Positions 1 to 31,284 of a stretch of DNA of 64,000 bases are shown here, piece by piece. Where the stretch lies: contig JBHHYZ010000003.1 of the NCBI GenBank assembly GCA_046757845.1, forward strand, positions 26,628 to 90,627, given 5' to 3'. Every line of letters starts with the position of its first letter. Position 1 is the first letter of the stretch. Source of the stretch: Gemmatimonadota bacterium. GTDB lineage: Bacteria > Gemmatimonadota > Gemmatimonadetes > Palauibacterales > Palauibacteraceae. The notes below the pieces were generated by a model. That model did not search any database. It saw only the letters and a program-made list of their open reading frames with translations, and was not told the origin of the DNA. The position numbers and the translations under genes are program-made.

Positions 1-647
1 TGAGCCGTCCAGGCCTCGTACTCGCCCGCCTCGTGAATCACCACCCGCGCCCTCATGCGATAATGCCCCAGACCGCACAGCTCGGCACAGCCGATCTCCA
101 TCTCGCCCGGCCGCAGCGCCTGGAACCAGATGCGGATCTTCATTCCGGGCACGGCATCCTGCTTCACGCGCAGATCGGGGATGAAGAACGAGTGGATCAC
201 ATCTTCGGACTCCAGCTGCACGATCACCGGTTCTCCCGCCGGGATGTGGAACTGGTTCCGCAAGTGGAAATCGTCATCCGTGCCCAGCTCGCCATCCGCG
301 CCTGGATATGTGACATTCCACTCAAACTGTTTTGCTTTAACTCCAATAGTTAAAGCATCTTCTGGGAATGACGCATTCCCGCGAATCCCCGCCCAAATCC
401 GACCGCTATAGATGCCGAGAAACACGAGCACGAGGGCGGGCACCGCGGTCCAGATCAACTCCAGACGCTGGCTCCCATGGGTATACAGCGCCCGGTGCCC
501 CTCGCGCCGACGGTACCGGATCGAGAACCATACGATGCCCACCTCGACCAGCACGAAGGCGATTCCCGTGATCACGAGAATGATGAAGAACAGCCTGTCG
601 ATGTCGATCCCCTGGGTCGACAGGTTGGGAGGCAGCGACCAGTCCAC
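1..647 (-). CDS. coxB: cytochrome c oxidase subunit II, C-terminus cut by the window edge
   Basis: My own minus-strand translation from a GTG at 645-647 gives two N-terminal TM helices, then the COX II core 'IGVKAKQFEWNVTYPG' and the CuA site 'GEMEIGCAELCGLGHYRMRARVVIHE'. There is no stop codon before position 1, which explains its absence from the ORF track. Confidence 0.8.
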   Translation of the reverse strand, partial: MDWSLPPNLSTQGIDIDRLFFIILVITGIAFVLVEVGIVWFSIRYRRREGHRALYTHGSQRLELIWTAVPALVLVFLGIYSGRIWAGIRGNASFPEDALTIGVKAKQFEWNVTYPGADGELGTDDDFHLRNQFHIPAGEPVIVQLESEDVIHSFFIPDLRVKQDAVPGMKIRIWFQALRPGEMEIGCAELCGLGHYRMRARVVIHEAGEYEAWTA

Positions 648-723: not shown

Positions 724-1617
724 CTAGCGCCCGGCCCCCGCCGGCTGAGGATCCGGCGATCTCCGCCCGGCGGCCGCCGAACCGTGGTCCACGACCAACG
801 GCGTACCGAGGGGAACATCGGCCCCTGCCGCCATATCCGCGCTGTACTGGAACGCGACCTCCTGCGTCTCCTGAGGTCCCAGGGTGACGTTCTGCGTCAG
901 CGTCCCGTACTTCTCGTGCCACGCCTCGATCACATAGTCGCCGGGTGGGAGGTTGGGGATCTCGAAGCTGCCGTCCGCTCCCGAGACCGCGAAGTACGGA
1001 TGGTCCACCACCCCGATGTAGGCGTGCATCCAACCGTGGACGTCACACTTGACCGGAATCATCACCTCGGGCGTTCGGAACTGCCGCCTCGACTCCATCC
1101 CCGCCTGGGGCTGACTGATGTTGAACCCACGGTTGGCCGTGGGCTGGGTGTTGATGTTGTGCAGCACCGGATCGTCGTTCTTGATCAGGAGAGTCTGCCC
1201 TGTCTGAACACCCAGCACATGCGGATGATAGCGGCACCCAGCCTGGTCGATCTCCACGCTCTCCTCCGGGGGTGGGAAGCTTCCCGAAAGACCCTCCTTC
1301 ACGTACACGAACACGTTGGCCAGCTTGCCCTCGTTCACCACCACCGTCTGAGTGGTGGGTCCCTGGTCACCGTACTTCGCGGCGCACGCCGGCTCTTCCG
1401 ACATGTCGATCGGCTCGGCCGGAGGCGGCGTGCCATCGAACGAGATCGTGCCACGGATCGCCGCCGCTTCCTCCGGGCTCACCGCGGGCGCTGCCGCTTC
1501 GGTCGCCTCCCCGGCCTGTCCACCGGACGAGGAACCCGCTCCTTCTCCACCGCCACCGCAGCCGAACAGGACGACCGCCGGAAACAGTGCCACAGACTTC
1601 AAGATCAGAGTTCGCAT
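724..1617 (-). CDS. secreted lipoprotein-like protein with a cupredoxin-like (type-1 Cu) motif and a carboxypeptidase-regulatory-like domain
   Basis: Internal ATG at 1615-1617 gives 'MRTLILKSVALFPAVVLFGCGG', a signal peptide with lipobox. 'KCDVHGWMHAYIGVV' fits a cupredoxin C-x2-H-x2-M loop. The C-terminal 'GADGSFEIPNLPPGDYVIEAWHEKYG' is CarbopepD_reg-like. The ORF-track N-terminal extension from 2070 is spurious. Confidence 0.5.
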   Translation of the reverse strand: MRTLILKSVALFPAVVLFGCGGGGEGAGSSSGGQAGEATEAAAPAVSPEEAAAIRGTISFDGTPPPAEPIDMSEEPACAAKYGDQGPTTQTVVVNEGKLANVFVYVKEGLSGSFPPPEESVEIDQAGCRYHPHVLGVQTGQTLLIKNDDPVLHNINTQPTANRGFNISQPQAGMESRRQFRTPEVMIPVKCDVHGWMHAYIGVVDHPYFAVSGADGSFEIPNLPPGDYVIEAWHEKYGTLTQNVTLGPQETQEVAFQYSADMAAGADVPLGTPLVVDHGSAAAGRRSPDPQPAGAGR

Positions 1618-1682
1618 GCCTTTCCTCCGTAAGTGTCGATTCGATTCCCGGAACCGTCCAGGGCGGGCGGATCGGGAACCCG

Positions 1683-3233
1683 TCATGGCGCCGGGAAGCG
1701 GCGTTGCGCCCGGCGAACGAGACCGATGCTCAGTCCGCCCGTGAGCAACACCGCGAGCAACGGTACCAGAAGCACCCTTGCCGAGCCCGGCTTCTCGAGC
1801 AGCACGTAATACCAGGTTCCGATCGAGCCTCGAGTCCCGGTTTCTCCGCTGGAGCCATCCCAGGCGAAGAAGGCTACGGGAATCGGCGTTCCCTGCTCGA
1901 ATCCGAGTTCGCTTTCGTCGGCCGCGTCCAGGGCTCTGCGCAGCACCAGGCTCCAGCGTCCCTTCTCGTACGCCGACTTCGCCGTCAGGCCTCCACCGAC
2001 CAGTGGCTCGAAGTTCGCCAGGCCCCTGGCCCAGGCCTCCGAGCCCCCCTCCAGGCTGTTCCAACGCCACAGGTAGGCCGGGTTCCGCTCGTCTCCCATG
2101 AGGAAATATGGACGCTCGGAGCCCTCCGGAATCTCGGGTGGAAACTGGACGGCGAAGGCGTCCGGAATTGGACGTGTGGGAATTCCCTCGCTATCGGCGA
2201 ACAGGCTCGCGGCGATCTTGGCCTGCCATTCGTCCCAGTTCGGATCCGGACTCCGGGAAGGATCGTCCCAAACGAGCCGAAGCGCCAGGTCTGTGCCGTC
2301 ATGCAGACCCTGCACCCACACGCCGTCCACCGTCGGAGAGAACTGGCGCGGCCTCCGAATGACCTGGCCGACGAGCGGGAAGTAGAACGCTTCGGCCTGC
2401 TCCCAGGCCGGATCTTCCGGGGAATCGGGCACCTTTCCTTCCGTCCGCCGCACTCGGACCACCTCGCGCACGTGCGGGGCCTCCCGCGGACCCAGGTTGG
2501 CTACGTAATGCGCCAGCTGCCAGATCTCCTCATCCGTGACGACCCCCCCCTCCAGAACATCGATGGCCGCCGGCATCGGCGTGCCGTCAAGGCCCGTCAG
2601 GATCCGGGTGTGGATGGCCTCGACGCTGCTTCCACCATTGAACAACCATGACTCGGTGAGGTCCGCCGCCCGGATCGGCAGCTTCCGCCAATCCTCCAGC
2701 GACGGTGCCGAGGGGCCATCTCCGCGGCCGGCCTCTCCGTGACACTTGGCACACTCGAGCTTGCCGAACACGGTTCGCCCTGATTCGATCGCGTCCTCCC
2801 CGCCGCCAGGGTCCGAAGTGAATTCCATCGCTTCCGGCACCTCGTCCTCGAAGAACGGGGAGAACGCCTTGATGTAGGAGAGCACGTCGGCCCGCTGCGT
2901 CGACGACAGGTTGGGCCAGGACGGCATGGTGGTGCCGGGGATGCCATGCTCGAGGACGCGTTCCAGGTCCGCGTCCGTGGGGAGTTCGCCGCTCCCGGTC
3001 GTCCGGACTTGATAGCGCGCGGCGGTGAAATCGCGGGGACGAGGAAGCATGCGTTCCGCCGCCGGCCCATCTCCCTTCCCATCCTCCCCGTGGCAATCCA
3101 CACACCACCGCTCGTACACCAGGCGACCCCGCTCGGAACTCTGAGCGACGACCCGACCCGAAGGCCAGCCCAGAGCTGCGAGCAGCGCGATGCCCACGCC
3201 CAGCTTGACCCGAACCCTTCCCCCATCCCTCAT
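1683..3233 (-). CDS. diheme c-type cytochrome fused to an EB_dh/DOMON-like heme-binding domain
   Basis: The internal start 'MRDGGRVRVKLGVGIALLAALGW' (signal peptide) lies at 3231-3233 and overlaps the upstream stop (ATGA). Two CXXCH motifs: CVDCHG and CAKCHG. The C-terminal half ('PYFLMGDERNPAYLWRWNS...AFFAWDGSSGETGTRGSIGTWYYV') resembles the ethylbenzene-dehydrogenase gamma / NxrC-type heme domain. A C-terminal TM helix follows. Confidence 0.6.
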   Translation of the reverse strand: MRDGGRVRVKLGVGIALLAALGWPSGRVVAQSSERGRLVYERWCVDCHGEDGKGDGPAAERMLPRPRDFTAARYQVRTTGSGELPTDADLERVLEHGIPGTTMPSWPNLSSTQRADVLSYIKAFSPFFEDEVPEAMEFTSDPGGGEDAIESGRTVFGKLECAKCHGEAGRGDGPSAPSLEDWRKLPIRAADLTESWLFNGGSSVEAIHTRILTGLDGTPMPAAIDVLEGGVVTDEEIWQLAHYVANLGPREAPHVREVVRVRRTEGKVPDSPEDPAWEQAEAFYFPLVGQVIRRPRQFSPTVDGVWVQGLHDGTDLALRLVWDDPSRSPDPNWDEWQAKIAASLFADSEGIPTRPIPDAFAVQFPPEIPEGSERPYFLMGDERNPAYLWRWNSLEGGSEAWARGLANFEPLVGGGLTAKSAYEKGRWSLVLRRALDAADESELGFEQGTPIPVAFFAWDGSSGETGTRGSIGTWYYVLLEKPGSARVLLVPLLAVLLTGGLSIGLVRRAQRRFPAP

Positions 3234-4057
3234 CACTCCCCTCCCGCCGCCTGTTCCCAGGTTCGGGGCGTGCTTCCGGTCTGCCGGTACAGGAAGATGA
3301 TCACGGACCATATGTCGTCTTCGTCCAGCACATCTTCCCATACGGGCATGGCCGAGTTCCAGGGCGTTCCCTCCACGGGTAGCCCCGGTCCTCCCTTCGC
3401 GATCCTCCAGAACACGTAGCTCTCCTGGAGCTGTGAGATCGTGCCCCCGCTCGAGAAATCGGCCGGTATGGGTGAGAACGCCGCGGCGTAGTGCCCGGCC
3501 CCATCCAGCCGATCGCCGTGGCAGGGCACGCAGTTCTCCGCGTAGATGCGGGCGCCGTGGCGGTAGGACTCCTCCAGGTCGCCCAAGCTTCGCAGGGGGT
3601 TCTCCAGGCCGGCCAGGCGCATCGTCCGCCCCCGGAACGTGATCTGGGTTGGAGGAGCCGGATGGATGGATCGCAGGCTGGCCGGCGCTCCGAAGCTGGG
3701 CTTCACGCTCTCGTAGGCCAGGTAACCAACCAGGAGTGGGAGACAGACGAGCAGGATGCCCCGAAGCCACCGTCGCTCGGATTCCACCATGGTACGGTGG
3801 ATCGGCTGCTTGAACTCCGTCCAGCGGTTCTCATCCGCGCTCACGTAGAGCAGCACGCCGGCCACGGCGATCAGCATGTACTGCAAAAGCACGGAGTGTG
3901 GAACCGGAGCGCTGTGCACGCCCGCGGCGGGCAGGAGGGATCCGATTCCGTATTTGAATACCACGTAGGATCCGATCAGGAGCAGCACGGCTTGCCAGAA
4001 CGGATGCCGCAGGTATCCTCTCATCTCCCGTCCTCGCGTCGATCCGGCCTCCTCCAC
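3233..4057 (-). CDS. membrane-anchored monoheme c-type cytochrome
   Basis: N-terminal TM helices, then one CXXCH (CVPCHGD) in a C-terminal soluble domain. The start is either 4057 or the ATG at 4024. Confidence 0.6.
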   Translation of the reverse strand: MEEAGSTRGREMRGYLRHPFWQAVLLLIGSYVVFKYGIGSLLPAAGVHSAPVPHSVLLQYMLIAVAGVLLYVSADENRWTEFKQPIHRTMVESERRWLRGILLVCLPLLVGYLAYESVKPSFGAPASLRSIHPAPPTQITFRGRTMRLAGLENPLRSLGDLEESYRHGARIYAENCVPCHGDRLDGAGHYAAAFSPIPADFSSGGTISQLQESYVFWRIAKGGPGLPVEGTPWNSAMPVWEDVLDEDDIWSVIIFLYRQTGSTPRTWEQAAGGE

Positions 4058-4061
4058 GAGA

Positions 4062-4865
4062 TCATTTCGCGCCCCGCAGAAAATCCACCAGGGCCTCGAG
4101 CTGCGCGGCGGTCAGCCGATCTCCGAAGTTGGGCGGCATGGTTCCGGCGAACGCCTCGAAACCCTGAGCGGTGTCGGCGTTGGGCCGTAGGATGCCCCGT
4201 CGCAGATACTCCCGATCCTTGCCGGCAAGGCTGCTGAACGGCGGGCCCACCTTGCCGCCTTCGCCCTCGAGCTCGTGGCAGGCCAGACATCCGAGCGTAT
4301 GGATCAGCTCGCGTGGGCTCAGCGAAGCCTCGAGGATGGTCCCCCCGCCGGCGGCGGTCCCCCCGCTTCCGTCCACACCTGCGGCCTTGGCCGGAATGTC
4401 GTCGGCGGTCACCGTCACCTCCCCACCCTGGCTCTCCAGAAAAGCGACGAGAGCCCAGATCTGGGACTCCGACAGCGTACGACCCATGGGCGGCATGATG
4501 GGCTGGAAGCCCTCCACGACATACGCCGCCGGGTCGACGAGGGATTCGTAGAGATACTCCTTGCACGACATCCCCGGCTTGCGGGACGCGCACCGGGTTC
4601 CGACCTCGCGCAGCAGATCCGGCGCGCGCGTTCCCAGGCCATGGCAGGCCGTACAGCCGCCCGCGCCCCGGAACAGCTCGCCGCCGATGCGCACCAGCTC
4701 CTCTGGGGTCACATCACCACTGATGCTCACAGCCTCCGGGACCTCCGACTGAACCTGCGGGATCATGTTGGCGACCGCCGTATACACGGCCAGTGTCCCG
4801 GCCACGGTGAGGCCGATGTTCAGGTTCGTGCGCCACATGGAGGTACGACCGAATTCGCGGTTCAT
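4062..4865 (-). CDS. membrane-anchored diheme c-type cytochrome
   Basis: N-terminal TM anchor and two CXXCH motifs (CTACHG, CLACHE). The start overlaps the upstream stop (ATGA at 4862-4865). Confidence 0.65.
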   Translation of the reverse strand: MNREFGRTSMWRTNLNIGLTVAGTLAVYTAVANMIPQVQSEVPEAVSISGDVTPEELVRIGGELFRGAGGCTACHGLGTRAPDLLREVGTRCASRKPGMSCKEYLYESLVDPAAYVVEGFQPIMPPMGRTLSESQIWALVAFLESQGGEVTVTADDIPAKAAGVDGSGGTAAGGGTILEASLSPRELIHTLGCLACHELEGEGGKVGPPFSSLAGKDREYLRRGILRPNADTAQGFEAFAGTMPPNFGDRLTAAQLEALVDFLRGAK

Positions 4866-6691
4866 TCCGGCCTCCCCCCGGCCGGAGCTGTATCTCCCGA
4901 CGATCGGCCGACCGATCTCGCGGCGCTGCTCATCAGAGCGGGCTTCTCCACTAGGCCGCCCAGCCAGAAGATGAGCCCCACCAATCCGAAGAAGATGAGA
5001 ACGCAGATGCTGATCATGGTGGCGGCGGGTCCGAGCGCGGGGGTGGCGGCCTGGGGACTCGTATCGCGCATCACCTCGTACACATGCCAGTGTTGCCGGA
5101 TGCCGCTACGGGCGAAGCCCATGAGTCCCATGAGCCAGGTGAAGGTGACCGCCAGAACGAGCAGGGCGTACTGCGAGCGCGCCGGCATCTGGCCCCAGCG
5201 GATCGCACCACGCGACGTGGCTCCCCGCATCATCGCGATATCGATGGCCACCACGAACACGATGGTGGCGAGGACGGCCAGCACCTGGTAGACGCTGAAG
5301 CCGATGCGGATGATGGCGGTCACGAAGTAGCCGTACACTCCGTAGAAAACCACCACGAGGGCCGCGACTCCGAACGCCAGCCCCTGCAGCCAGGTGCCGG
5401 CTCGCGCCCACGCCACGACCGGCTCCTTGTTGGCCCGGCGATACAGAAGAAACGAGAGGAAGGTCGTGAGGATCATGAGATTCACGGCCGTGTTCTTGGC
5501 GCTCATCACGCCGAGCACGCCGAGAAACGGGTGGTGAGTACCGCCCATCGCGGCGATCTCATCTCGATTCGCGATCATCGTATGCGGGGTCGACCACACC
5601 AGGACGCCCAGCACCAGCACCAGAAGCATCCACTTGATGTGGGGCCGGAAGCGCTCGGCCCCCGGAATCCTTCCCATCCCGATCCACAGGTAGTAGTTGC
5701 CCGCCAGGAAGAGCACTCCGATCAGGAACGCCTGGATGATCCACAACCAGCTCATGAACCCGCCCATCATCGTGATGCCCAGCTGCTGGTTGTACTCGTA
5801 GATCTCGCGGCCGAGATAGTAGCCCGCGAAGGGGAGGACGATGAGGGCTCCGATCGCGATGAGGTTGCCGATGTAACCCATCCAGTCGTAGTGGGCCCGT
5901 TCCTCCTCGGTCCGCGCGGCCAGGAATCGGTAGGCGGCATAGGCTCCGACGATCGCTCCGCCGAACACCACGTTGGCGATGAGGCGGTGGATGTTGATCG
6001 GCATCCACGTCGCATTGGCCAACGCGCTCCACAGCTTCACCTGTTGTGGCGCCGTGTCCGCGGTCACCTCCGCCGGCGGGCTCATCATGTACGTGAGCCA
6101 ACCGTTGGCGATGAACATCACCGTCGTGCCCCATACATTGAGGAGGATTCCGAGACCCAGGTGGAATCTCTTGCCGGCGCCCCGGCTCCAGCGGTCCCAA
6201 CCGTAGTAGTAGAGGTACAGGGTGAAGGATTCCACGAAGAACAGGCCCACATACAGCCACATGGACGGGCCGAAGATCGCCGTCAGATAGACCCAGAATT
6301 TCGGGTAGAGGGTGGACAGGAAGAATACGAGCACCGCCCCCCAGATGGCAGTGGCGCTGTACGCGATCAACAGCAGGCGGGTGAACTCCTTGGCCAGCTT
6401 GTCGTAACGCTCTTCCCGGGTGAATATTCCGATCCCCTCCACCACCACGGCGAACATCGGCACACCCAGCACGAACGCCGCGAACATCAGATGGAGCTGG
6501 GCCGCGATCCACACTGCGCCCCGCGCATCCAGACCGAACAGGTGGAACTCCCCGTAAGCGGGAGGGCCGTCCTGCGCCAGCAGCGGGCCCGCCACCAGGA
6601 GCAGCGACGCGGCGGCCAGGACCCAGACGAGAGCGGAGCAGCGAGGTCGGCTCTTCTCTCCGGAAGAACGCTTCATCCCTGGCGCCATCAA
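4862..6691 (-). CDS. cytochrome bd ubiquinol oxidase subunit I-like (CydA family) integral membrane protein, orphan (no CydB)
   Basis: 609 aa and polytopic. The N-terminus 'AAQLHLMFAAFVLGVPMFAVVVE' matches the CydA helix-1 signature with the heme-ligand His. 'ANGWLTYMMSPP' is a GW..E-like motif. It is longer than canonical CydA, with extra C-terminal TM helices. No CydB gene is adjacent. The start overlaps the rSAM stop (ATGA). Confidence 0.65.
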   Translation of the reverse strand: MMAPGMKRSSGEKSRPRCSALVWVLAAASLLLVAGPLLAQDGPPAYGEFHLFGLDARGAVWIAAQLHLMFAAFVLGVPMFAVVVEGIGIFTREERYDKLAKEFTRLLLIAYSATAIWGAVLVFFLSTLYPKFWVYLTAIFGPSMWLYVGLFFVESFTLYLYYYGWDRWSRGAGKRFHLGLGILLNVWGTTVMFIANGWLTYMMSPPAEVTADTAPQQVKLWSALANATWMPINIHRLIANVVFGGAIVGAYAAYRFLAARTEEERAHYDWMGYIGNLIAIGALIVLPFAGYYLGREIYEYNQQLGITMMGGFMSWLWIIQAFLIGVLFLAGNYYLWIGMGRIPGAERFRPHIKWMLLVLVLGVLVWSTPHTMIANRDEIAAMGGTHHPFLGVLGVMSAKNTAVNLMILTTFLSFLLYRRANKEPVVAWARAGTWLQGLAFGVAALVVVFYGVYGYFVTAIIRIGFSVYQVLAVLATIVFVVAIDIAMMRGATSRGAIRWGQMPARSQYALLVLAVTFTWLMGLMGFARSGIRQHWHVYEVMRDTSPQAATPALGPAATMISICVLIFFGLVGLIFWLGGLVEKPALMSSAARSVGRSSGDTAPAGGRPE

Positions 6692-8046
6692 TGCCTCCGT
6701 GCGAAGAACGGCAGGCGACGGGAGAAATCTACCGGCATCTCGGCACGCACCTCCTGCATCACTTCAAGCGTGATCCGCTCGTAGCCCCGGTCCCGGGCGA
6801 AGGACTCGACTCGGCCGGCCACCACGCCGCGGACGAAAGAAGGAATCCGCCTCAGCTTCCGCTCCGCCTCCGGAGTCCACTCCAGGGCGCGCGTGACCTC
6901 GGCCCCGTAGGTGGTCGCCCGGGCGCGCGGGACGGGCTCGGCCCAGCCGGCCGGCTCGTAGGCACAGGACTCATCGGGTCCCAGGAAATCGCCATCGGTG
7001 GCATAGGCTCGGGCTCGACAACCGCCGCACACCTCACGGTATTCGCAACGGCCGCACTTGCCGCCGGGCCGACCCTCGCGCAGCAGGCGGAACAGCCTGG
7101 ACGAGCGCCATATCGTGCCGAAGTCGTCCTGCCGGAGGTCGCCCGCCACGGCTGGCATGTAGGGGCATGGCGTCACCGCCCCCTCGGGGGTGATCCGACA
7201 GTACTGGACTCCACACGGGCAGCGGGTCGCGTAATGCAGGAGCGGCGATTCGGGGTCTCGCTCATACACGTGCCGCATCAACTGAGGCTGGCACTTGGAG
7301 CGGATCATGAGCCGGCCACGGTATTCACGCTGCAACCGAACCAGCTCCAGCAGCACTTCCTCGTTCTCCGTCGGTGACAGTCCGGCCATGCCGCTGCCGC
7401 GGCCCGTCTCCACCAGGAAGTAGAAGTTGACGCACACCGCACCCATCCGATCCGCCCAGGACACCAGTCCCTCCACCTCGCGGTGGTTTCCCCTGGTGAG
7501 GGTCATCTGGACCACGAAGTCCAGACCCTGCCGGCGGAGGCGGCCCACGGCGTCGAGCGTGTCCTGGAGCGCCCCCCGGCCATGTCGGAAGCGGTCATGG
7601 TAGCGCGGATTCAACGAATCGACGCTGAGGGCGACTCCCTGCACGCCCGCTCCCATCAGGGATCCGATCCGCTCCTCCGTCAACAGTGTCCCGTTCGTCC
7701 CGACCACCACGGTGGCGCCCCCGCTCGAAGCGTGGCCCGAAATCGTTTCGAGATCCTCACGTAGCAGGGGCTCACCACCGCTGAGGATGAGCATCGGCGC
7801 GGGGTTGACCGACAACACCTGATCCACGATGCGAAGACACGCGTCCGTGCCCAGCTCTTCCTCCGCTCCATGCCATGAACCGGCCGAGATGTAACAGTGG
7901 GCGCAGGCCAGATTGCAGCGCCGCGTGAGATTCCAGGCCACGACGTGAGGCCGTGCGACAGTCGCTTCATCCCGCCCCCGGGAGAGTGGGCCGAGGGCCG
8001 GCTTGAGCCACCGAGTGGCTCGAGCCTCACTCCGACTCCCGCCCAT
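6688..8046 (-). CDS. radical SAM/SPASM-domain protein (NirJ/AhbC/AhbD-like) with a C-terminal PCP_red-like domain
   Basis: 'VVAWNLTRRCNLACAHCY' is the CxxxCxxC radical SAM motif of the SPASM/NirJ group. The C-terminal Cys-rich region 'CPCGVQYCRITPEGAVTPCPY...CGRCEYREVCGGCRARA' is the SPASM domain. The tail 'TPEAERKLRRIPSFVRGVVAGRVESFARDRGYERITLEVM' resembles the BchB/ChlB C-terminal PCP_red domain. Confidence 0.7.
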   Translation of the reverse strand: MGGSRSEARATRWLKPALGPLSRGRDEATVARPHVVAWNLTRRCNLACAHCYISAGSWHGAEEELGTDACLRIVDQVLSVNPAPMLILSGGEPLLREDLETISGHASSGGATVVVGTNGTLLTEERIGSLMGAGVQGVALSVDSLNPRYHDRFRHGRGALQDTLDAVGRLRRQGLDFVVQMTLTRGNHREVEGLVSWADRMGAVCVNFYFLVETGRGSGMAGLSPTENEEVLLELVRLQREYRGRLMIRSKCQPQLMRHVYERDPESPLLHYATRCPCGVQYCRITPEGAVTPCPYMPAVAGDLRQDDFGTIWRSSRLFRLLREGRPGGKCGRCEYREVCGGCRARAYATDGDFLGPDESCAYEPAGWAEPVPRARATTYGAEVTRALEWTPEAERKLRRIPSFVRGVVAGRVESFARDRGYERITLEVMQEVRAEMPVDFSRRLPFFARRH

Positions 8047-10105
8047 CCCCGTCCCTCTCCACCAACCTCTCCACCGCCGCTCTCGCGTCCGCGGGACTCA
8101 CCATCGCGAAATCCACCGGGCACGCGGCCGCCTGCGCCTCGATGTCCCGAATCGGACACCGGCTCACCCCGGAGGCCTTCGCCTCCTCGATGAACCGCTT
8201 CATCTCAGCGCTGAGTCCGTCTCCGCCGGTCACGTCGGCTCGGGCCTGTTTTGCCTTCAGCTCGTTGAACATCACCAGCATCGTATCCATGTCGAACTCG
8301 TCCGCCTCGATCATGGCCTCCTTGTTCTCGTCCATGACGCGCGTCGTCACGCGCCACAGGCCATGTGCGCGGGCGAACCGCTCCACCGTGTTGCGGGCCA
8401 GGGGGCGGGCGATCAGCGGCACCTGATTGAGTCGCGCGAAGGCTTCGTGCGTCCACACGATCGGATCTCCGGCAGCTCTCTGGCGGGAAGTCAGATGGCC
8501 GCTGTGAGGACACCGTTCCTGGACGGGAGGCGGAGACTCCGGACACTCCGCGTCGCGAGTCCGAACCACCGTGCGCTTCATCGCCTCTTCAGCCTTCAGC
8601 TCGGCGAGCGCGAACTCTTCCGCATCCCCGATCCCCATGATCAGCTGCATGTGGGTGGGAAGGAGCTTACGAATCGCCTCATCGAGCCTCTGGTTGGTGA
8701 CGGTGGGCAGGGTGGGAATGCCGAGCGCGGATTCCCGTCCGCCGCCGTCGGGCGAGCCATCCTCCCCGTCGTCAAAGGCGGCCGCGTAGCGGCTCCCGGG
8801 CCCGTGGAACTCGAGGACGTACTCCTCCACCGCCCTGCGGGCGATGCCCAGGGCGAAAGGTGGTACGCGGAGAATCCTCACCTCCGCCTCCGGAGCCCAT
8901 TCCAGGCCCTGTCGCCCATCCTCCTCGATCCAGGGGATCTCCTCCGGGCGCACATCCGTCGTCCCCGCGATCAGGATGTTGGTCGGGGCCAGGCGGGCAA
9001 GGTTCTCCGCCTGGCTGCCGAGCTCGGTTCCCTCGATCCGGTGTGCGCCATGCCGGGCGAGGATCAGGAGGGTGGGATCGATCTCTTCAGCCCACTGCAG
9101 GACCACCTGAAACGGCTTGCCTATCAGGATCTGCGTGTGGATCTCGACCTCGGGATACTCCCCGCCCATCACCTCCGCGCGCTTGATGTTGGCCTGGCAG
9201 AGCTTCAACAACCCCTTGTCGATGATGTTGTTGTGCAGCGCCTCCTGCTCCTCGAACTTGAACACCTTGGAGGCCTGGGCAGAAAGAACATCTTTGATGT
9301 TGTGGAACACGACGTGGTGGTACTCCACGTCGAAGGCGCTGCACACGTAGAGGCTGGCGGAGAACTCGCGCGCCAGCTCCAGCGCCTTCCGCAGACCCCT
9401 GTAAGCGTACGCCGACCCGTCCACGCAGACCATGAACCGTCCGCCCTCGAGCGGCCGCCCATCCCGGACGAGCAACACGTCCTTGCGGATGCAGCGAAGC
9501 GCTCGGCCGGCCACGCCACCCAGCTGGCTGTAGGGCTGCCGACCCAGGCCGTGCGCACCCAAGATCACGAGATCGTAGTCGCGCCCCGAGGTGCCGGCCA
9601 ACTTCTGTTCGGCCGTCTCCTCCTCGGCGATGATGCGGCCGTCTTCCCCCAGCCTGACATCGGAGCGGACCTGCTCGCCGCCGTCGTAATGGTGGGCAAT
9701 ATTGGGATCGAACCCGATCAGGCTGGGAAGCCGCCCGCTTCCGGAGTTGGACTCGCGGACGATCTCTTCGTAGTTGATTCCCTCCAGCAGTTGCCGCGTC
9801 AGCGGCACTCCGGCCTGCCCGCAACGCTGGGCCACCTGATCCAGAAAACTGTCCGAGATGAGCTGCAGGCCTTTCTCGATGAGCTTGTCGTGGATCTTCC
9901 GCTGGCGGCGGATCTCTTGCGGCTCCTGGAACTGGGCGGGGAGCCCGATCTCCAGCTGGCGGAATCGTACGTCGTGCAGGCGAGCGGCGTAGACGTGCGT
10001 AGCCGTGATACGGCCCTGCGACCTCTCGCAGAGCTCGATAGCCCTGTCGACCGCCCAATCCGAGTGCTCGGAGTTGTCGACAGGGACGAGAAGCTCTCGA
10101 TACAT
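8027..10105 (-). CDS. tandem universal-stress-protein (UspA) domain protein with two PCP_red-like domains
   Basis: Two UspA-like modules ('LLVPVDNSEHSDWAVDRAIEL', 'FMVCVDGSAYAYRGLRKALELA'). Two PCP_red-like repeats ('WAPEAEVRILRVPPFALGIARRAVEEYVLEFHG', 'WTHEAFARLNQVPLIARPLARNTVERFARAHG'). An acidic C-terminal tail. Confidence 0.55.
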   Translation of the reverse strand: MYRELLVPVDNSEHSDWAVDRAIELCERSQGRITATHVYAARLHDVRFRQLEIGLPAQFQEPQEIRRQRKIHDKLIEKGLQLISDSFLDQVAQRCGQAGVPLTRQLLEGINYEEIVRESNSGSGRLPSLIGFDPNIAHHYDGGEQVRSDVRLGEDGRIIAEEETAEQKLAGTSGRDYDLVILGAHGLGRQPYSQLGGVAGRALRCIRKDVLLVRDGRPLEGGRFMVCVDGSAYAYRGLRKALELAREFSASLYVCSAFDVEYHHVVFHNIKDVLSAQASKVFKFEEQEALHNNIIDKGLLKLCQANIKRAEVMGGEYPEVEIHTQILIGKPFQVVLQWAEEIDPTLLILARHGAHRIEGTELGSQAENLARLAPTNILIAGTTDVRPEEIPWIEEDGRQGLEWAPEAEVRILRVPPFALGIARRAVEEYVLEFHGPGSRYAAAFDDGEDGSPDGGGRESALGIPTLPTVTNQRLDEAIRKLLPTHMQLIMGIGDAEEFALAELKAEEAMKRTVVRTRDAECPESPPPVQERCPHSGHLTSRQRAAGDPIVWTHEAFARLNQVPLIARPLARNTVERFARAHGLWRVTTRVMDENKEAMIEADEFDMDTMLVMFNELKAKQARADVTGGDGLSAEMKRFIEEAKASGVSRCPIRDIEAQAAACPVDFAMVSPADARAAVERLVERDGDGRESE

Positions 10106-21906: not shown

Positions 21907-22004
21907 TGGCGGGAACGTGTGGGAATCGAACCCACCCAGGACGTTTCCGCGCCCCGTGACGGTTTTGAAGACCGCAGGCAACACCAGTCACCATCCGCTC
22001 CCGC
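21907..22004 (-). tRNA. selC: tRNA-Sec (selenocysteine tRNA, anticodon UCA)
   Basis: My own reverse complement gives GCGGGAGCGGATGG...GCGGTCTTCAAAACCGTC...GTGGGTTCGATTCCCACACGTTCCCGCCA. The anticodon loop CUUCAAA (UCA) is identical to E. coli selC; there is a T-loop GGTTCGATTCC and a long variable arm; about 98 nt. Confidence 0.7.
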
Positions 22005-26525: not shown

Positions 26526-26886
26526 TGGAGGCGGCGGGAATCGAACCCGCGTCCGCGAGCCCTTCCGCCACGGCATCTACGTGCGTAGCCAGGAGTCAGA
26601 ATCTCGCCACGGGACAGCCTCCAGGCTACCTCCCCGCGGCCAGCCGTCGGTCGGCTTGCGCCATCTCATCGCGGACGCCTACGGCGTGCGCCCACGACCA
26701 GCCCGATATCTCGTCGCCTTCCGGCCCGCCTCGGGCACGGCAAATCGGAAGACGGACCGCGTTAGTTACGCGGCCAGTGCCAAGTTGTCGTTGGCAGTTG
26801 AAATCTTTCCCGGTGTTTTACGAGGCCCCGGGACCTCGGCACGCTTCCGCAGCTTCTAGTTCACGCGTCGAAGCCGTATCGCCCCC
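26526..26886 (-). ncRNA. ssrA: tmRNA (SsrA), tag peptide ANDNLALAA, CCA not encoded
   Basis: My own rc gives 5' GGGGGCGATACGGCTTCGACG... and 3' ...GCGGGTTCGATTCCCGCCGCCTCCA. The acceptor pairs GGGGGCG with CGCCUCC through G3:U70. Tag ORF: GCC AAC GAC AAC TTG GCA CTG GCC GCG TAA. Confidence 0.85.
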
Positions 26887-28895: not shown

Positions 28896-29381
28896 CTAGC
28901 GAACCAGAAGCAGTCTCCGAACCTGAGCCTCTCCATCCACCAGGAGTTGTACGAAATACGGGCCCGGAGTAAGCTTCTTCCCCTGCAGGTCGCGCCCGTC
29001 CCACACCGCCTCGTAGGATCCTGGGCGAACGAAAGCCACCTGATCAAGCCGCCGCCCCGGCTTCCCGTCATTCCCGCTGAGCTTCGGCATGGCGACGAGT
29101 TGATGGAGGATGTTGTACACTCGCATCGACACGGTGACCGCATGCCCCTTTCGAAACAACGCTTCTCCGAGAATGAACGGCAGGCGTGTCTCCCTGTCGA
29201 ACGGGTTGGGAAAGGCCGGCTGCAGAGAGAAATCGGTTTCGTGCAGGCCCCTGATCCGTCCCCGCGCATCCTGGGCCACGGCGGCGTGGCCGCATGCCAG
29301 GAGCAGCACCAGGATAAGCGGAAAACCTCGCCGGGTCGCTCCCGCCCTCCGCGCGACCAGGCACTCAGCCGGCCAGCTCAC
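28896..29381 (-). CDS. small secreted protein with a T9SS/FlgD-Ig-like C-terminal sorting domain
   Basis: Signal peptide 'LILVLLLACGHAAVAQ'. 'FPNPFDRETRLPFIL...VTVSMRVYNILHQLVAM...YEAVWDGRDLQGKKLTPGPYFVQLLVDGEAQVRRLLLV' matches the Por-secretion C-terminal-domain pattern. Confidence 0.4.
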   Translation of the reverse strand: MSWPAECLVARRAGATRRGFPLILVLLLACGHAAVAQDARGRIRGLHETDFSLQPAFPNPFDRETRLPFILGEALFRKGHAVTVSMRVYNILHQLVAMPKLSGNDGKPGRRLDQVAFVRPGSYEAVWDGRDLQGKKLTPGPYFVQLLVDGEAQVRRLLLVR

Positions 29382-31284
29382 GTCCCTCTCCCGTGCGGCG
29401 CGTCACGCCCCGTCGATCCAGATACTCCAGGATCGGGATCAGGTACTTGCGGCTAACGCCGAACGCCTCCTTGAACACGCCGGGCGCCGCTACCCGCTCC
29501 CTCGCGAGCAGCTCCCGGGCTCGTGCGGCCAGCTCCTCCGCGAGCGCCGCTTGAAGATAGATCTCGGGCGTCAGCGCGACGATCTTCCCCTCTTCCTGGA
29601 GCAGCAGCAGCAGGTCCTGGAGCAGGTCGCGCTCCATCCGGAGAGTCCGTTCCAGGTCCGACAGGGTCTCGGGCTCCGCTCCGCCCGCGCGGATCGACTC
29701 CAGCAGGCGTTCCTGCTGCCTTCGTTCCTCATCCGTAAGCGCGGGTCGGTGATCCGGCAGACGAGCGCCGGGACCGTGGATCTCTACCCGCCCTGCCTCC
29801 GCCATGCGGGCCAGAACGTGGTCCACGAGCTCGTCGGCGAAGCGCCTTTTCCCGACCTCCTTGAGGGCCCCCAGCGACACGGCAGCCACCCGGCGCCGCT
29901 GTCGATGCAGCCGGCGAAGCTCACCTTCGAGGAACTCGGCCGCTTCCTCGGCTCGGCGGCTCGTGAACCACCGGTCCTTGACGCGAAGGAGACCGCTCAC
30001 CTCCCGCCCCAGCAATCCGGCCACTTCCTCTGACGGAAGTCCCGTCACCAGCGGCATTCTTGGAGTCTCGACCCCGCGGCCGCCGTGCAAGCCGACCGCC
30101 GCCACCAGCGCCTCCTCCGGGGAGCCATCCAGAATCCGCTTCCACTCCGCCAGGCTCTGGCGCCAGCCGCGGCCCGGCTGCAGCTGGGCGACCTGCCCGC
30201 CGCCCAGGGTGCAGACCGGCGAGTAGAAGCGGAGCACGAAGCGATCCTTCACGCGCGCTACCAGGGCCTCCTCGAGCCACAGCAGGGCCCAACCCCTCCG
30301 GCCCGGCTCCAACTCGCCGCCTTCCGGAAGCAGCACGCGCGCCATCACCTCTTTCGTTCCCAGATACACCCGTAGCCTGCGCTCGTGATCCACAGGTCGG
30401 CCCGCCCCCGCGAGCACCTCGATACGGACGCCCAGCCGGCGGCACTCCTCCCACACTTCGTCGCGCACGGCCACGGTGCCTCGTGGCACCCGCTGGGCCT
30501 GAACCCCCACCAGGGCCATGGCGCACCGCCGACCGGCTCCGACCGCTCGGCGCGCTTCCCCATGAACCTGAAGTCCCCGAACGCGAGCCCGCCGGCCCAG
30601 CGGCCATAGCAGGACCTCCTCCCCCGTCCTCACTTCGCCGCTCCACACGGTCCCGGTCACCACAGTCCCCGTCCCTCGAACGGAGAACGACCGGTCAATG
30701 GGCAGTCGGAACAGGTCATCCACCGGCCGATCCTTCACATCGCCGGCCGCCCCTTTCAGGGCCTCACGCAGCCCGACCATGCCTTCTCCCGTGGTGGAAG
30801 ATACCGGCAGGATCGGCCACTCCCCGTGGCCGAGTGTCCGCCGCAGCGCATCGCGCGTCGCCTCCCGAGCCAGATCGAGCCAGTCCTCATCCACCCTGTC
30901 CGCCTTGGTGAGCGCCACCACTCCACGGTTCACACCCAACAGCTTCGCGATGGACAGATGCTCGAACGTCTGCGGCATGGGCCCTTCATCCGCCGCAACC
31001 ACCAGCAGCAGAAGATCGATGCCCGTCGCGCCGGCCAGCATGTTCTTGAGGAAATCCTCGTGCCCCGGCACATCCACGACACCGGCCTCGATGCCGGTCC
31101 CCAGGCTCAAACGGGCGAACCCGATATCGATGGTCAGGCCCCGTTCCTTCTCTTCCTTCCACCGGTCCGTATCCACTCCGGTGAGCGCCCGGACGAGCGA
31201 TGTCTTGCCGTGGTCCACATGGCCGGCCGTACCCACCACGATGCCCTTCGGAGTCGCGCCGGGGCTTCGCTCGGATGGAGTCAC
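29365..31284 (-). CDS. selB: selenocysteine-specific translation elongation factor
   Basis: '[16 protein letters not shown]', 'DVPGHEDF' and 'LTKADRV' form the GTPase; the long C-terminal winged-helix region is typical of bacterial SelB; 639 aa. Confidence 0.85.

Follow-up and report, generated by a model that had tools for sequence, protein, structure and literature searches.

Some nitrite oxidisers and anaerobic ammonium-oxidising (anammox) bacteria carry a gene module in which a CydA-like protein is accompanied by several cytochromes c and by a subunit designated alt_NxrC. In Nitrospira moscoviensis, alt_NxrC_2 was described as a dihaem cytochrome c of 66.8 kDa with a signal peptide and one transmembrane helix; its gene, which is strongly transcribed, forms a cluster with those for bd-like_3 and two membrane-bound cytochromes c (Mundinger 2019, PMC6606698). 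The nxr cluster of Kuenenia contains the same run, i.e. kustd1709 (dihaem), 1710 (monohaem), 1711 (dihaem) and 1712 (cydA-like). Several cytochromes c and an ebdC homologue were also reported in OR-N2 operons (Murali 2021), and TO_1 of the Manganitrophaceae combines two cytochromes c and a "periplasmic cytochrome b" with a bd-like oxidase (Yu 2021 bioRxiv). It has been suggested that the module might work like alternative complex III (ACIII) in reverse (Lucker 2013, PMC3578206), and in the bioenergetics of nitrifiers and anammox bacteria two roles are under debate for the bd-like (OR-N) complexes, that of a terminal oxidase and that of a gate for reverse electron transport. In our literature search we found no biochemical, structural or cryo-electron microscopy study of an OR-N complex or of the module, and no link of the module to Gemmatimonadota under the term "bd-like". 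Here we analyse a gene of this type (1683–3233, minus strand) within a 64,000-nucleotide stretch of DNA of a Gemmatimonadota bacterium (contig JBHHYZ010000003.1, positions 26,628 to 90,627), referred to below as the window.

The gene product is assigned as the Gemmatimonadota orthologue of alt_NxrC, i.e. an ordinary member of a family known from genomes. It probably relays electrons as one of the four subunits of a cytochrome bd-like (OR-N2) membrane complex, facing the periplasm and being anchored by its C-terminus.

Domain architecture of the alt_NxrC-type subunit

The open reading frame (ORF) encodes a protein of 516 amino acids (aa), which contains both peptides quoted in an earlier first-pass annotation of this DNA (PYFLMGDERNPAYLWRWNS and AFFAWDGSSGETGTRGSIGTWYYV) and is 100% identical to the NCBI entry "MAG: c-type cytochrome [Gemmatimonadota bacterium]" (MAG, metagenome-assembled genome). 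Its start codon (ATG at 3233) and the stop codon that ends the upstream gene share bases (GTGATG). A scan for promoters and terminators gave counts not above those in shuffled sequence. From the N- to the C-terminus, the protein consists of a signal peptide, two class-I cytochrome c domains, an EB_dh beta-sandwich and one transmembrane helix. An AlphaFold2 (AF2) model, made from 51 homologues, had a mean predicted local distance difference test score (pLDDT) of 78.7, with values of ~90 across most of the beta-sandwich. The features of the gene are as follows.

1683–3233 (-), whole gene, alt_NxrC-type subunit (translation, Pfam, 100% NCBI match)
3144–3233 (-), signal peptide or hydrophobic N-terminal leader, aa 1–30, ending ...VVA/QS (reading of the sequence; low AF2 pLDDT there)
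2859–3143 (-), cytochrome c domain 1, aa 31–125, C44-x2-C47-H48, distal Met103 (Pfam)
2484–2798 (-), cytochrome c domain 2, aa 146–250, C161-x2-C164-H165, distal Met220 (Pfam)
1830–2414 (-), EB_dh (PF09459) beta-sandwich, aa 274–468 (Pfam, 55.3 bits; Foldseek matches 2ivf_C and 7b04_C)
1701–1781 (-), C-terminal transmembrane helix, aa 485–511, followed by RRAQRR (hydropathy and AF2)

Cleavage of the signal peptide is predicted after ...VVA. The only transmembrane-like segment (residues 487–505, hydropathy 2.37) lies within the AF2 helix spanning residues 485–511, and most of the protein sits on the periplasmic side, held by this C-terminal anchor. In a Foldseek search with the AF2 model, the top PDB match was Kustc0457 (6h5l_B; E 5e-17), a dihaem cytochrome c of the Kuenenia hydroxylamine oxidoreductase (HAO)-like complex, followed by EbdC (2ivf_C; E 7.6e-14, TM-score 0.73 on the target) and Kuenenia NxrC (7b04_C; E 1.6e-13); CBM9 and DOMON-type sandwiches ranked lower. 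Pfam, AF2/Foldseek and hydropathy thus bear out the first-pass description of a dihaem cytochrome c joined to an EB_dh-like domain and a C-terminal transmembrane helix, and the proposed search with PF09459 gave an E value of 1.2e-14 at a gathering score of 33.3. The EB_dh domain had, however, been credited with about 300 residues, whereas it covers about 200–230, residues 170–250 belonging to the second cytochrome c domain.

The two CXXCH motifs start at residues 44 and 161, within two Cytochrom_C/Cytochrome_CBB3 stretches recognised by Pfam (E 3.7e-19), and the dihaem module also gives a ccoP-like match (TIGR00782). Residues 31–248 align with Kustc0457 at 43% identity in a sequence search (E 3.6e-52). 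Family-wide conservation was assessed in 150 diverse representatives of clusters formed at 50% identity. C44, C47 and H48 of domain 1 are present in 138–139 and M103 in 143 of these sequences, and the corresponding residues of domain 2 in 147 (C161, C164 and H165) and 146 (M220). Judged by these residues, both His/Met c-haem sites of the protein are shown to be intact and near-invariant throughout the family.

Partner subunits and conservation of the module

The gene lies in a tightly packed, co-directional minus-strand cluster, which comprises the genes at 724–10105 and the start of COX2, and in which start and stop codons overlap. Three of the upstream genes encode its putative partner subunits.

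3233–4057 (-), upstream subunit with three transmembrane-like segments and a monohaem cytochrome c, CXXCH at 176 (Pfam, hydropathy, synteny, fusion)
4062–4865 (-), membrane-anchored dihaem cytochrome c, CXXCH at 71 and 193 (Pfam, hydropathy, synteny)
4862–6691 (-), CydA-like (cytochrome bd-like, OR-N2-type) polytopic membrane protein, 609 aa (PF01654, signature residues)

PF01654 covers only the N-terminal part of the CydA-like protein (residues 57–302). Alignment with Geobacillus CydA (5doq_A) revealed that the equivalents of His19 and Glu are retained, and the motif WLYVGLFFVESFTLYLYYYGWDRWSRGAGKRFH has spacing identical to that of the OR-N2 signature Y183/E190/Y197/Y199/H213 (Murali 2021, Table S6).

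The family of the alt_NxrC-type subunit is large: it forms at least 823 clusters at 50% identity (E<1e-30), mostly of full-length proteins, and is present in at least 489 species-level genomes; the relatives of the target include Ca. Palauibacter. The gene order CydA-like/dihaem/transmembrane-monohaem/alt_NxrC-type is kept in ~60 of 80 species-level loci from at least 10 phyla, having been observed in Gemmatimonadota, Rokubacteria/Methylomirabilota, Poribacteria, Nitrospirota and Nitrospinota, as well as in Rhodothermales, Myxococcota, Thermoanaerobaculia, Pseudomonadota and Scalinduaceae; it is retained in these groups wherever flanking sequence is present. The transmembrane monohaem subunit is syntenic with the alt_NxrC-type subunit in 78 of 84 loci. 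Moreover, the two are naturally fused in three proteins of about 780–800 aa (P0069, P0082 and P0109), and at its N-terminus P0069 matches the product of the gene immediately upstream in the window (61% identity). Synteny and gene fusion together thus link the protein to the neighbouring CydA-like/cytochrome c complex, as proposed in the first-pass annotation, with the CydA-like protein and the two further cytochromes c as its obligate partners at the genomic level.

Several other representatives of the 50% clusters are 700–810 aa long and were grouped with these fusions. Gemmatimonadota also contain another, paralogous module, which is more divergent (~37–40% identity to the target; loci L040 and L048 of Gemmatimonadaceae and Longimicrobiales). 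It has Tyr/Met at the ligand positions discussed below and a cupredoxin gene upstream of the CydA-like gene; a COX operon is absent from its flank. Two loci of Poribacteria (L035, 1–3054, plus strand, and L042) encode, upstream of the module, an octa-CXXCH cytochrome of about 1,020–1,050 aa with a FixO-like segment. Most ORFs of at least 800 aa in high-GC loci are spurious.

Haem-b ligand positions of the EB_dh domain

The haem b of Kuenenia NxrC is ligated by Met155 and Lys305, as in ethylbenzene dehydrogenase (EBDH; Chicano 2021). Single-sequence and profile alignments agree in placing the Met ligand at M379 (motif PYFLMG) and the Lys ligand at G469 (motif TRGS) of the target.

2097–2099 (-), codon of Met379, at the position of EbdC Met108 and NxrC Met155 (HMMER alignments)
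1827–1829 (-), codon of Gly469, at the position of EbdC Lys201 and NxrC Lys305, i.e. with loss of the Lys ligand (HMMER alignments)

Of the two axial ligands that were to be checked according to the first-pass annotation, Met is therefore present and Lys is missing, which leaves the label "heme-b-type" unproven for this protein. The scores obtained with two curated NCBIfam models are below their cut-offs, both for TIGR03477 ("DMSO reductase family type II enzyme, heme b subunit"; DMSO, dimethyl sulfoxide; 87.8 bits, cut-off 169.85) and for NF042980 (EbdC; 27.1 bits, cut-off 400).

Among 51 close homologues (53–65% identity to the target), position 379 is occupied by Met in 48 sequences and by Ala, Ala and Gly in the other three, while position 469 is Gly, Ala or Ser in all 51. 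In the diverse representatives, Met occupies position 379 in only 39 of 139 sequences, and position 469 is Arg in 47, Lys in 21, Met in 17, Gly in 10, Cys in 10 and His in 9. Across 80 species-level genomes, positions 379/469 covary from clade to clade.

Met/Lys: Planctomycetota and one Rokubacteria locus (no CydA-like neighbour)
His/His: three gammaproteobacteria
Met/His: Scalinduaceae
Phe or Trp/Met: Nitrospira
Phe, Tyr or Met/Met preceded by His: Nitrospina
Met/Met: Gemmatimonadota class 1
Met/Gly, Ala or Ser: Gemmatimonadota class 2 (the clade of the target)
Gly/Gly: Gemmatimonadota class 3, with W458A and the WYY aromatics gone

Two pairings are enriched in Fisher tests that were not corrected for phylogeny, namely Met-Lys (p=2e-4) and His-His (p=9e-4). 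In our reading, positions 379 and 469 probably provide the axial ligands across the family as a whole, with the b haem as an evolutionarily labile accessory and the two c haems as the constant part; the target would represent an intermediate stage with one remaining haem-b ligand, Met379. As the ligands vary by clade and the c-haem motifs hardly at all, the b haem seems to be dispensable, and its presence in the target is doubtful. The EB_dh domain may still hold it, although we lean slightly towards its absence, and if present we do not think it essential. H311 and Y376 were considered as replacement haem ligands and rejected, since family-wide H311 varies to Tyr or Phe, and Y376 to His or Phe.

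Cupredoxin and oxidase genes downstream of the module

Downstream of the alt_NxrC-type gene the cluster continues with two further genes.

724–1617 (-), lipoprotein with a cupredoxin domain and a CarboxypepD_reg beta-sandwich (Pfam, profile search)
1–647 (-), 5' part of COX2, the CuA subunit of an A-type haem-copper oxidase, running off the window (COX2 homology, CuA motif)

As a single sequence, the lipoprotein had no significant match in the PDB, and Pfam found only its CarboxypepD_reg domain. However, it carries a type-1 copper motif (H146...C184-x2-H187-x2-M190), all four ligands of which are invariant in 11 sequences from 7 phyla, and a profile of 11 homologues matches the blue-copper protein 5fc9_A (3.5e-5) and amicyanin (1.7e-4). 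The lipoprotein thus represents a cupredoxin fused to a CarboxypepD_reg sandwich. C121 is likewise invariant across the 7 phyla.

COX2 is separated from the lipoprotein gene by a gap of 76 bp. Its product is 64% identical to COX2 of the related locus L003 and contains the CuA motif CAELCGLGHYRM, with no fused cytochrome c. In two relatives, L003 (12589–17104) and L004 (12666–17437), which are Gemmatimonadota loci on contigs of 2.9–3.1 Mb, the cluster runs on into COX2-COX1-COX3-COX4-CtaB. A cupredoxin lipoprotein gene and a COX operon immediately downstream of the module were found in three groups: Gemmatimonadota, Rokubacteria/Methylomirabilota and Poribacteria.

Proposed function and direction of electron flow

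The proposed complex would consist of the CydA-like protein, the dihaem cytochrome c, the transmembrane monohaem subunit and the alt_NxrC-type subunit. Electrons would hop via the two c haems of the latter, in a module resembling CcoP and Kustc0457, and this relay would link the haems of the CydA-like protein, through the other two cytochromes, with periplasmic carriers, i.e. the cupredoxin and the CuA centre of the adjacent oxidase. The EB_dh beta-sandwich would serve mainly as a docking scaffold, and a molybdoenzyme partner would not be needed.

As regards the direction of flow, a role analogous to that of ACIII, in which electrons would pass from quinol via the c haems and the cupredoxin to the adjacent oxidase, is slightly favoured here, albeit tentatively. 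The preference for a reversible quinol:cytochrome c/cupredoxin oxidoreductase arises from the presence of the module in anammox bacteria, which are strict anaerobes, and from its position before the cox operon, which resembles that of ACIII before its oxidase. A broader proposal, which we put forward as a speculation and consider unlikely as a whole, is that the conserved module (OR-N2 CydA-like protein, five c haems and cupredoxin) constitutes a third, unrecognised reversible enzyme of this kind, running forward into the downstream oxidase in aerobic heterotrophs (Gemmatimonadota, Rokubacteria, Poribacteria) and in reverse in nitrite oxidisers and anammox bacteria. On this view, the b haem of the EB_dh domain would be an ancestral input port for molybdoenzymes, decaying from Met/Met through Met/Gly to Gly/Gly once unused.

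Several points weigh against the explanation favoured here, including the electron-relay role. The CydA-like protein of the module is reported to be without a Q-loop (Lucker 2013, PMC3578206), which weakens the quinol-oxidising reading, and every cited paper infers the subunit composition and activity of the module from genomes. The search for a molybdoenzyme described below spanned 64 kb of the genome, and a distant partner is possible. The AF2 model carries no cofactors, so that haem-b occupancy is unreadable from it. Finally, the clade of the target keeps Met379, W458 and Y475/Y476, while the Gly/Gly clade alters all of these together; a Met-ligated b haem may therefore persist, in which case the EB_dh domain would be more than a scaffold.

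One alternative is that the b haem is kept with non-canonical ligation (Met379 with water, with no sixth ligand, or with a residue of a partner subunit). The protein would in that case form a wire of three haems (c-c-b), including one that may be accessible to ligands. We judge its chances to fall just short of even. The prevalence of Met379 in the close homologues, the high pLDDT of the EB_dh core and the retention of the pocket residues W458 and Y475/Y476, as in the Met/Met clade, speak in its favour, but Met379 is replaced by Ala or Gly in three close homologues, position 469 is occupied by small residues across the clade, and the EB_dh domain contains no other invariant His, Lys, Met or Cys. 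This alternative concerns the cofactor content alone, and fits either electron direction as well as the electron-relay role favoured above.

A different direction of flow would follow if the complex were a cytochrome c-oxidising O2 reductase, i.e. an OR-N2 terminal oxidase. The alt_NxrC-type protein would then be a CcoP-like entry subunit, passing electrons from a soluble cytochrome c or a cupredoxin to the O2-reducing haems of the CydA-like subunit, and the adjacent haem-copper oxidase would be a second, independent oxidase. The homology of the superfamily, the conserved His19 and Glu equivalents and OR-N2 signature, and the ccoP-like match of the dihaem module are consistent with such an activity. 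O2 reduction with cytochrome c as the donor has been proposed by Murali 2021 and in the genome papers on Nitrospinota and Nitrospirales; Nitrospira needs an oxidase, and in the aerobe Ca. Manganitrophus TO_1 is the bd-like cluster with the highest expression (Yu 2021 bioRxiv). However, anammox bacteria, although strict anaerobes, also possess the conserved module (Scalinduaceae L049; Kuenenia kustd1709-1712), its placement before a complete COX operon is more like the known arrangement of ACIII and oxidase than like two stacked oxidases, and no OR-N enzyme has a demonstrated O2-reductase activity. On balance we hold an O2 reductase to be somewhat unlikely.

The remaining question is that of a molybdoenzyme partner. 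No molybdopterin enzyme was identified among the large ORFs of the window, none of which has a fitting size or Pfam content, and a tblastn search of the window with an AioA-like probe gave nothing better than E 0.9, although a remote NarG could escape such a probe. The flanks (+/-10 kb) of ~30 Gemmatimonadota loci likewise contain no molybdopterin enzyme and have the COX operon there instead; nitrite oxidoreductase (NXR) is absent both from the window and from the Gemmatimonadota flanks examined. The first-pass annotation had called for a search of the genome for NarG/NxrA-like enzymes; run on the window, this search found none, and the view that the EB_dh domain is detached from any molybdoenzyme stands within that scope. 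Periplasmic molybdoenzymes can nevertheless neighbour the module: in two gammaproteobacterial MAGs (Chromatiales, Thiotrichaceae), an AioA-like enzyme with Rieske_3 and Molybdopterin domains is encoded 3–4 kb downstream of the target homologue (L070, 15838–18612, plus strand; L078, 14448–17153, plus strand), with TIGR02693 scores of 412 and 367 bits (cut-off 359). In these clades both haem-b ligand positions of the homologue are His.

That the target is a true gamma subunit, whose haem-b EB_dh domain docks a periplasmic type II DMSO reductase-family enzyme (NxrAB-like or Nar-like) encoded elsewhere and sends its electrons via the c haems into the membrane, is the original idea of a "membrane anchor for NXR" and is ranked as the least likely explanation, indeed a highly improbable one, because the homology to NxrC and EbdC, the co-conservation of the module with NXR in Nitrospira, Nitrospina and Kuenenia and the two AioA-like neighbours are opposed by the loss of the Lys ligand in the target and of both ligands in sister Gemmatimonadota clades, by the lack of a molybdopterin enzyme in the window and in the flanks of the ~30 loci, by a TIGR03477 score far under the cut-off, and by the presence of the family in many phyla without known nitrite oxidation.

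Gemmatimonadota and other phyla not known to oxidise nitrite commonly carry the module, and there it is wired beside a conventional cytochrome c oxidase. This distribution, the COX adjacency and the eroding b-haem site supposed to dock NXR argue against a "NXR membrane anchor" as its general function. Gemmatimonadota and similar phyla thus offer NXR-free genomic backgrounds for testing the module.

Other genes of the window

The cluster is headed by two genes upstream of that for the CydA-like protein.

6688–8046 (-), radical SAM/SPASM protein (NirJ2/AhbD-like) with a C-terminal PCP_red domain (Pfam, NCBIfam; overlapping stops)
8027–10105 (-), protein with two Usp domains and PCP_red, heading the cluster (Pfam, synteny)

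The radical SAM protein scored 276 and 259 bits with the NirJ2 and AhbD models (haem d1/haem b synthase family), both values being below the cut-offs. This pair of genes is a conserved feature upstream of the bd-like module in Gemmatimonadota, and lies near the module also in loci of Rhodothermales, Thermoanaerobaculia, Nitrospirae and Chromatiales. The pair may be involved in the maturation of a special haem for the CydA-like subunit. The window further contains a tRNA-Sec gene (21907–22002, minus strand) and a SelB gene (29365–31284, minus strand), indicating that the organism makes selenoproteins, and a tmRNA gene (26526–26886).

Comparison with known systems

In ACIII with its adjacent caa3 operon, as in the window, the genes of a membrane complex with multiple c haems immediately precede an operon for a haem-copper oxidase. 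The resemblance is confined to functional analogy: the two complexes are not homologous, and the window lacks ActB (molybdopterin-like) and ActC (NrfD-like), its core being a CydA homologue without a recognised quinol site.

With Kustc0457 (6H5L chain B) and CcoP of the cbb3 oxidases, the first 220 residues of the target share a dihaem class-I cytochrome c module, and both of these proteins are docking/relay subunits that lengthen a haem wire. In contrast to the target, Kustc0457 is soluble and has an octahaem HAO-like enzyme as its partner, whereas CcoP is anchored N-terminally and its partner is a haem-copper oxidase. EbdC (2IVF chain C) and Kuenenia NxrC (7B04 chain C) have the same beta-sandwich fold and the conserved Met ligand; the target differs from them in having Gly in place of Lys, a fused dihaem cytochrome c and a transmembrane anchor, and no co-encoded alpha and beta subunits.

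The OR-N2 operon (Murali, Gennis & Hemp 2021) and TO_1 of Ca. Manganitrophus share with the window a CydA-like protein carrying the OR-N2 signature residues. The EB_dh subunit is taken as a b-type cytochrome in these papers, whereas the clade of the target is without one of the axial ligands, and in those parts of the texts available to us the adjacency to COX is not described.

Among the closest counterparts are alt_NxrC_2 of N. moscoviensis (NITMOv2_3640), alt_NxrC of Nitrospina gracilis and the kustd1709-1712 run, which have the same domain plan (signal peptide, two CXXCH, NxrC/EB_dh-like domain and C-terminal transmembrane helix). The loci of Nitrospira, Nitrospina and Scalindua have the gene order of the window, and their proteins align with the target over the full length at 28–36% identity. 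The differences lie in the neighbourhood, with a COX operon and no NXR context in the case of the target, and at the ligand positions (Phe or Trp and Met in Nitrospira; Phe, Tyr or Met and (His)Met in Nitrospina; Met and His in Scalindua; Met and Gly in the target). The functional link to NXR, which is a hypothesis in the literature rather than a strict defining feature of these proteins, has no counterpart in the window or the Gemmatimonadota flanks, where NXR is absent. The fusion of EB_dh to cytochrome c away from a molybdoenzyme operon is already published, and the "rewired electron wire" suggested in the first-pass annotation is not a novelty, being the same module as alt_NxrC, OR-N2 or TO_1. 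What the present locus and its relatives add to the cited papers is modest, i.e. the series of decaying haem-b ligands and the adjacency to COX in phyla that are not nitrite oxidisers.

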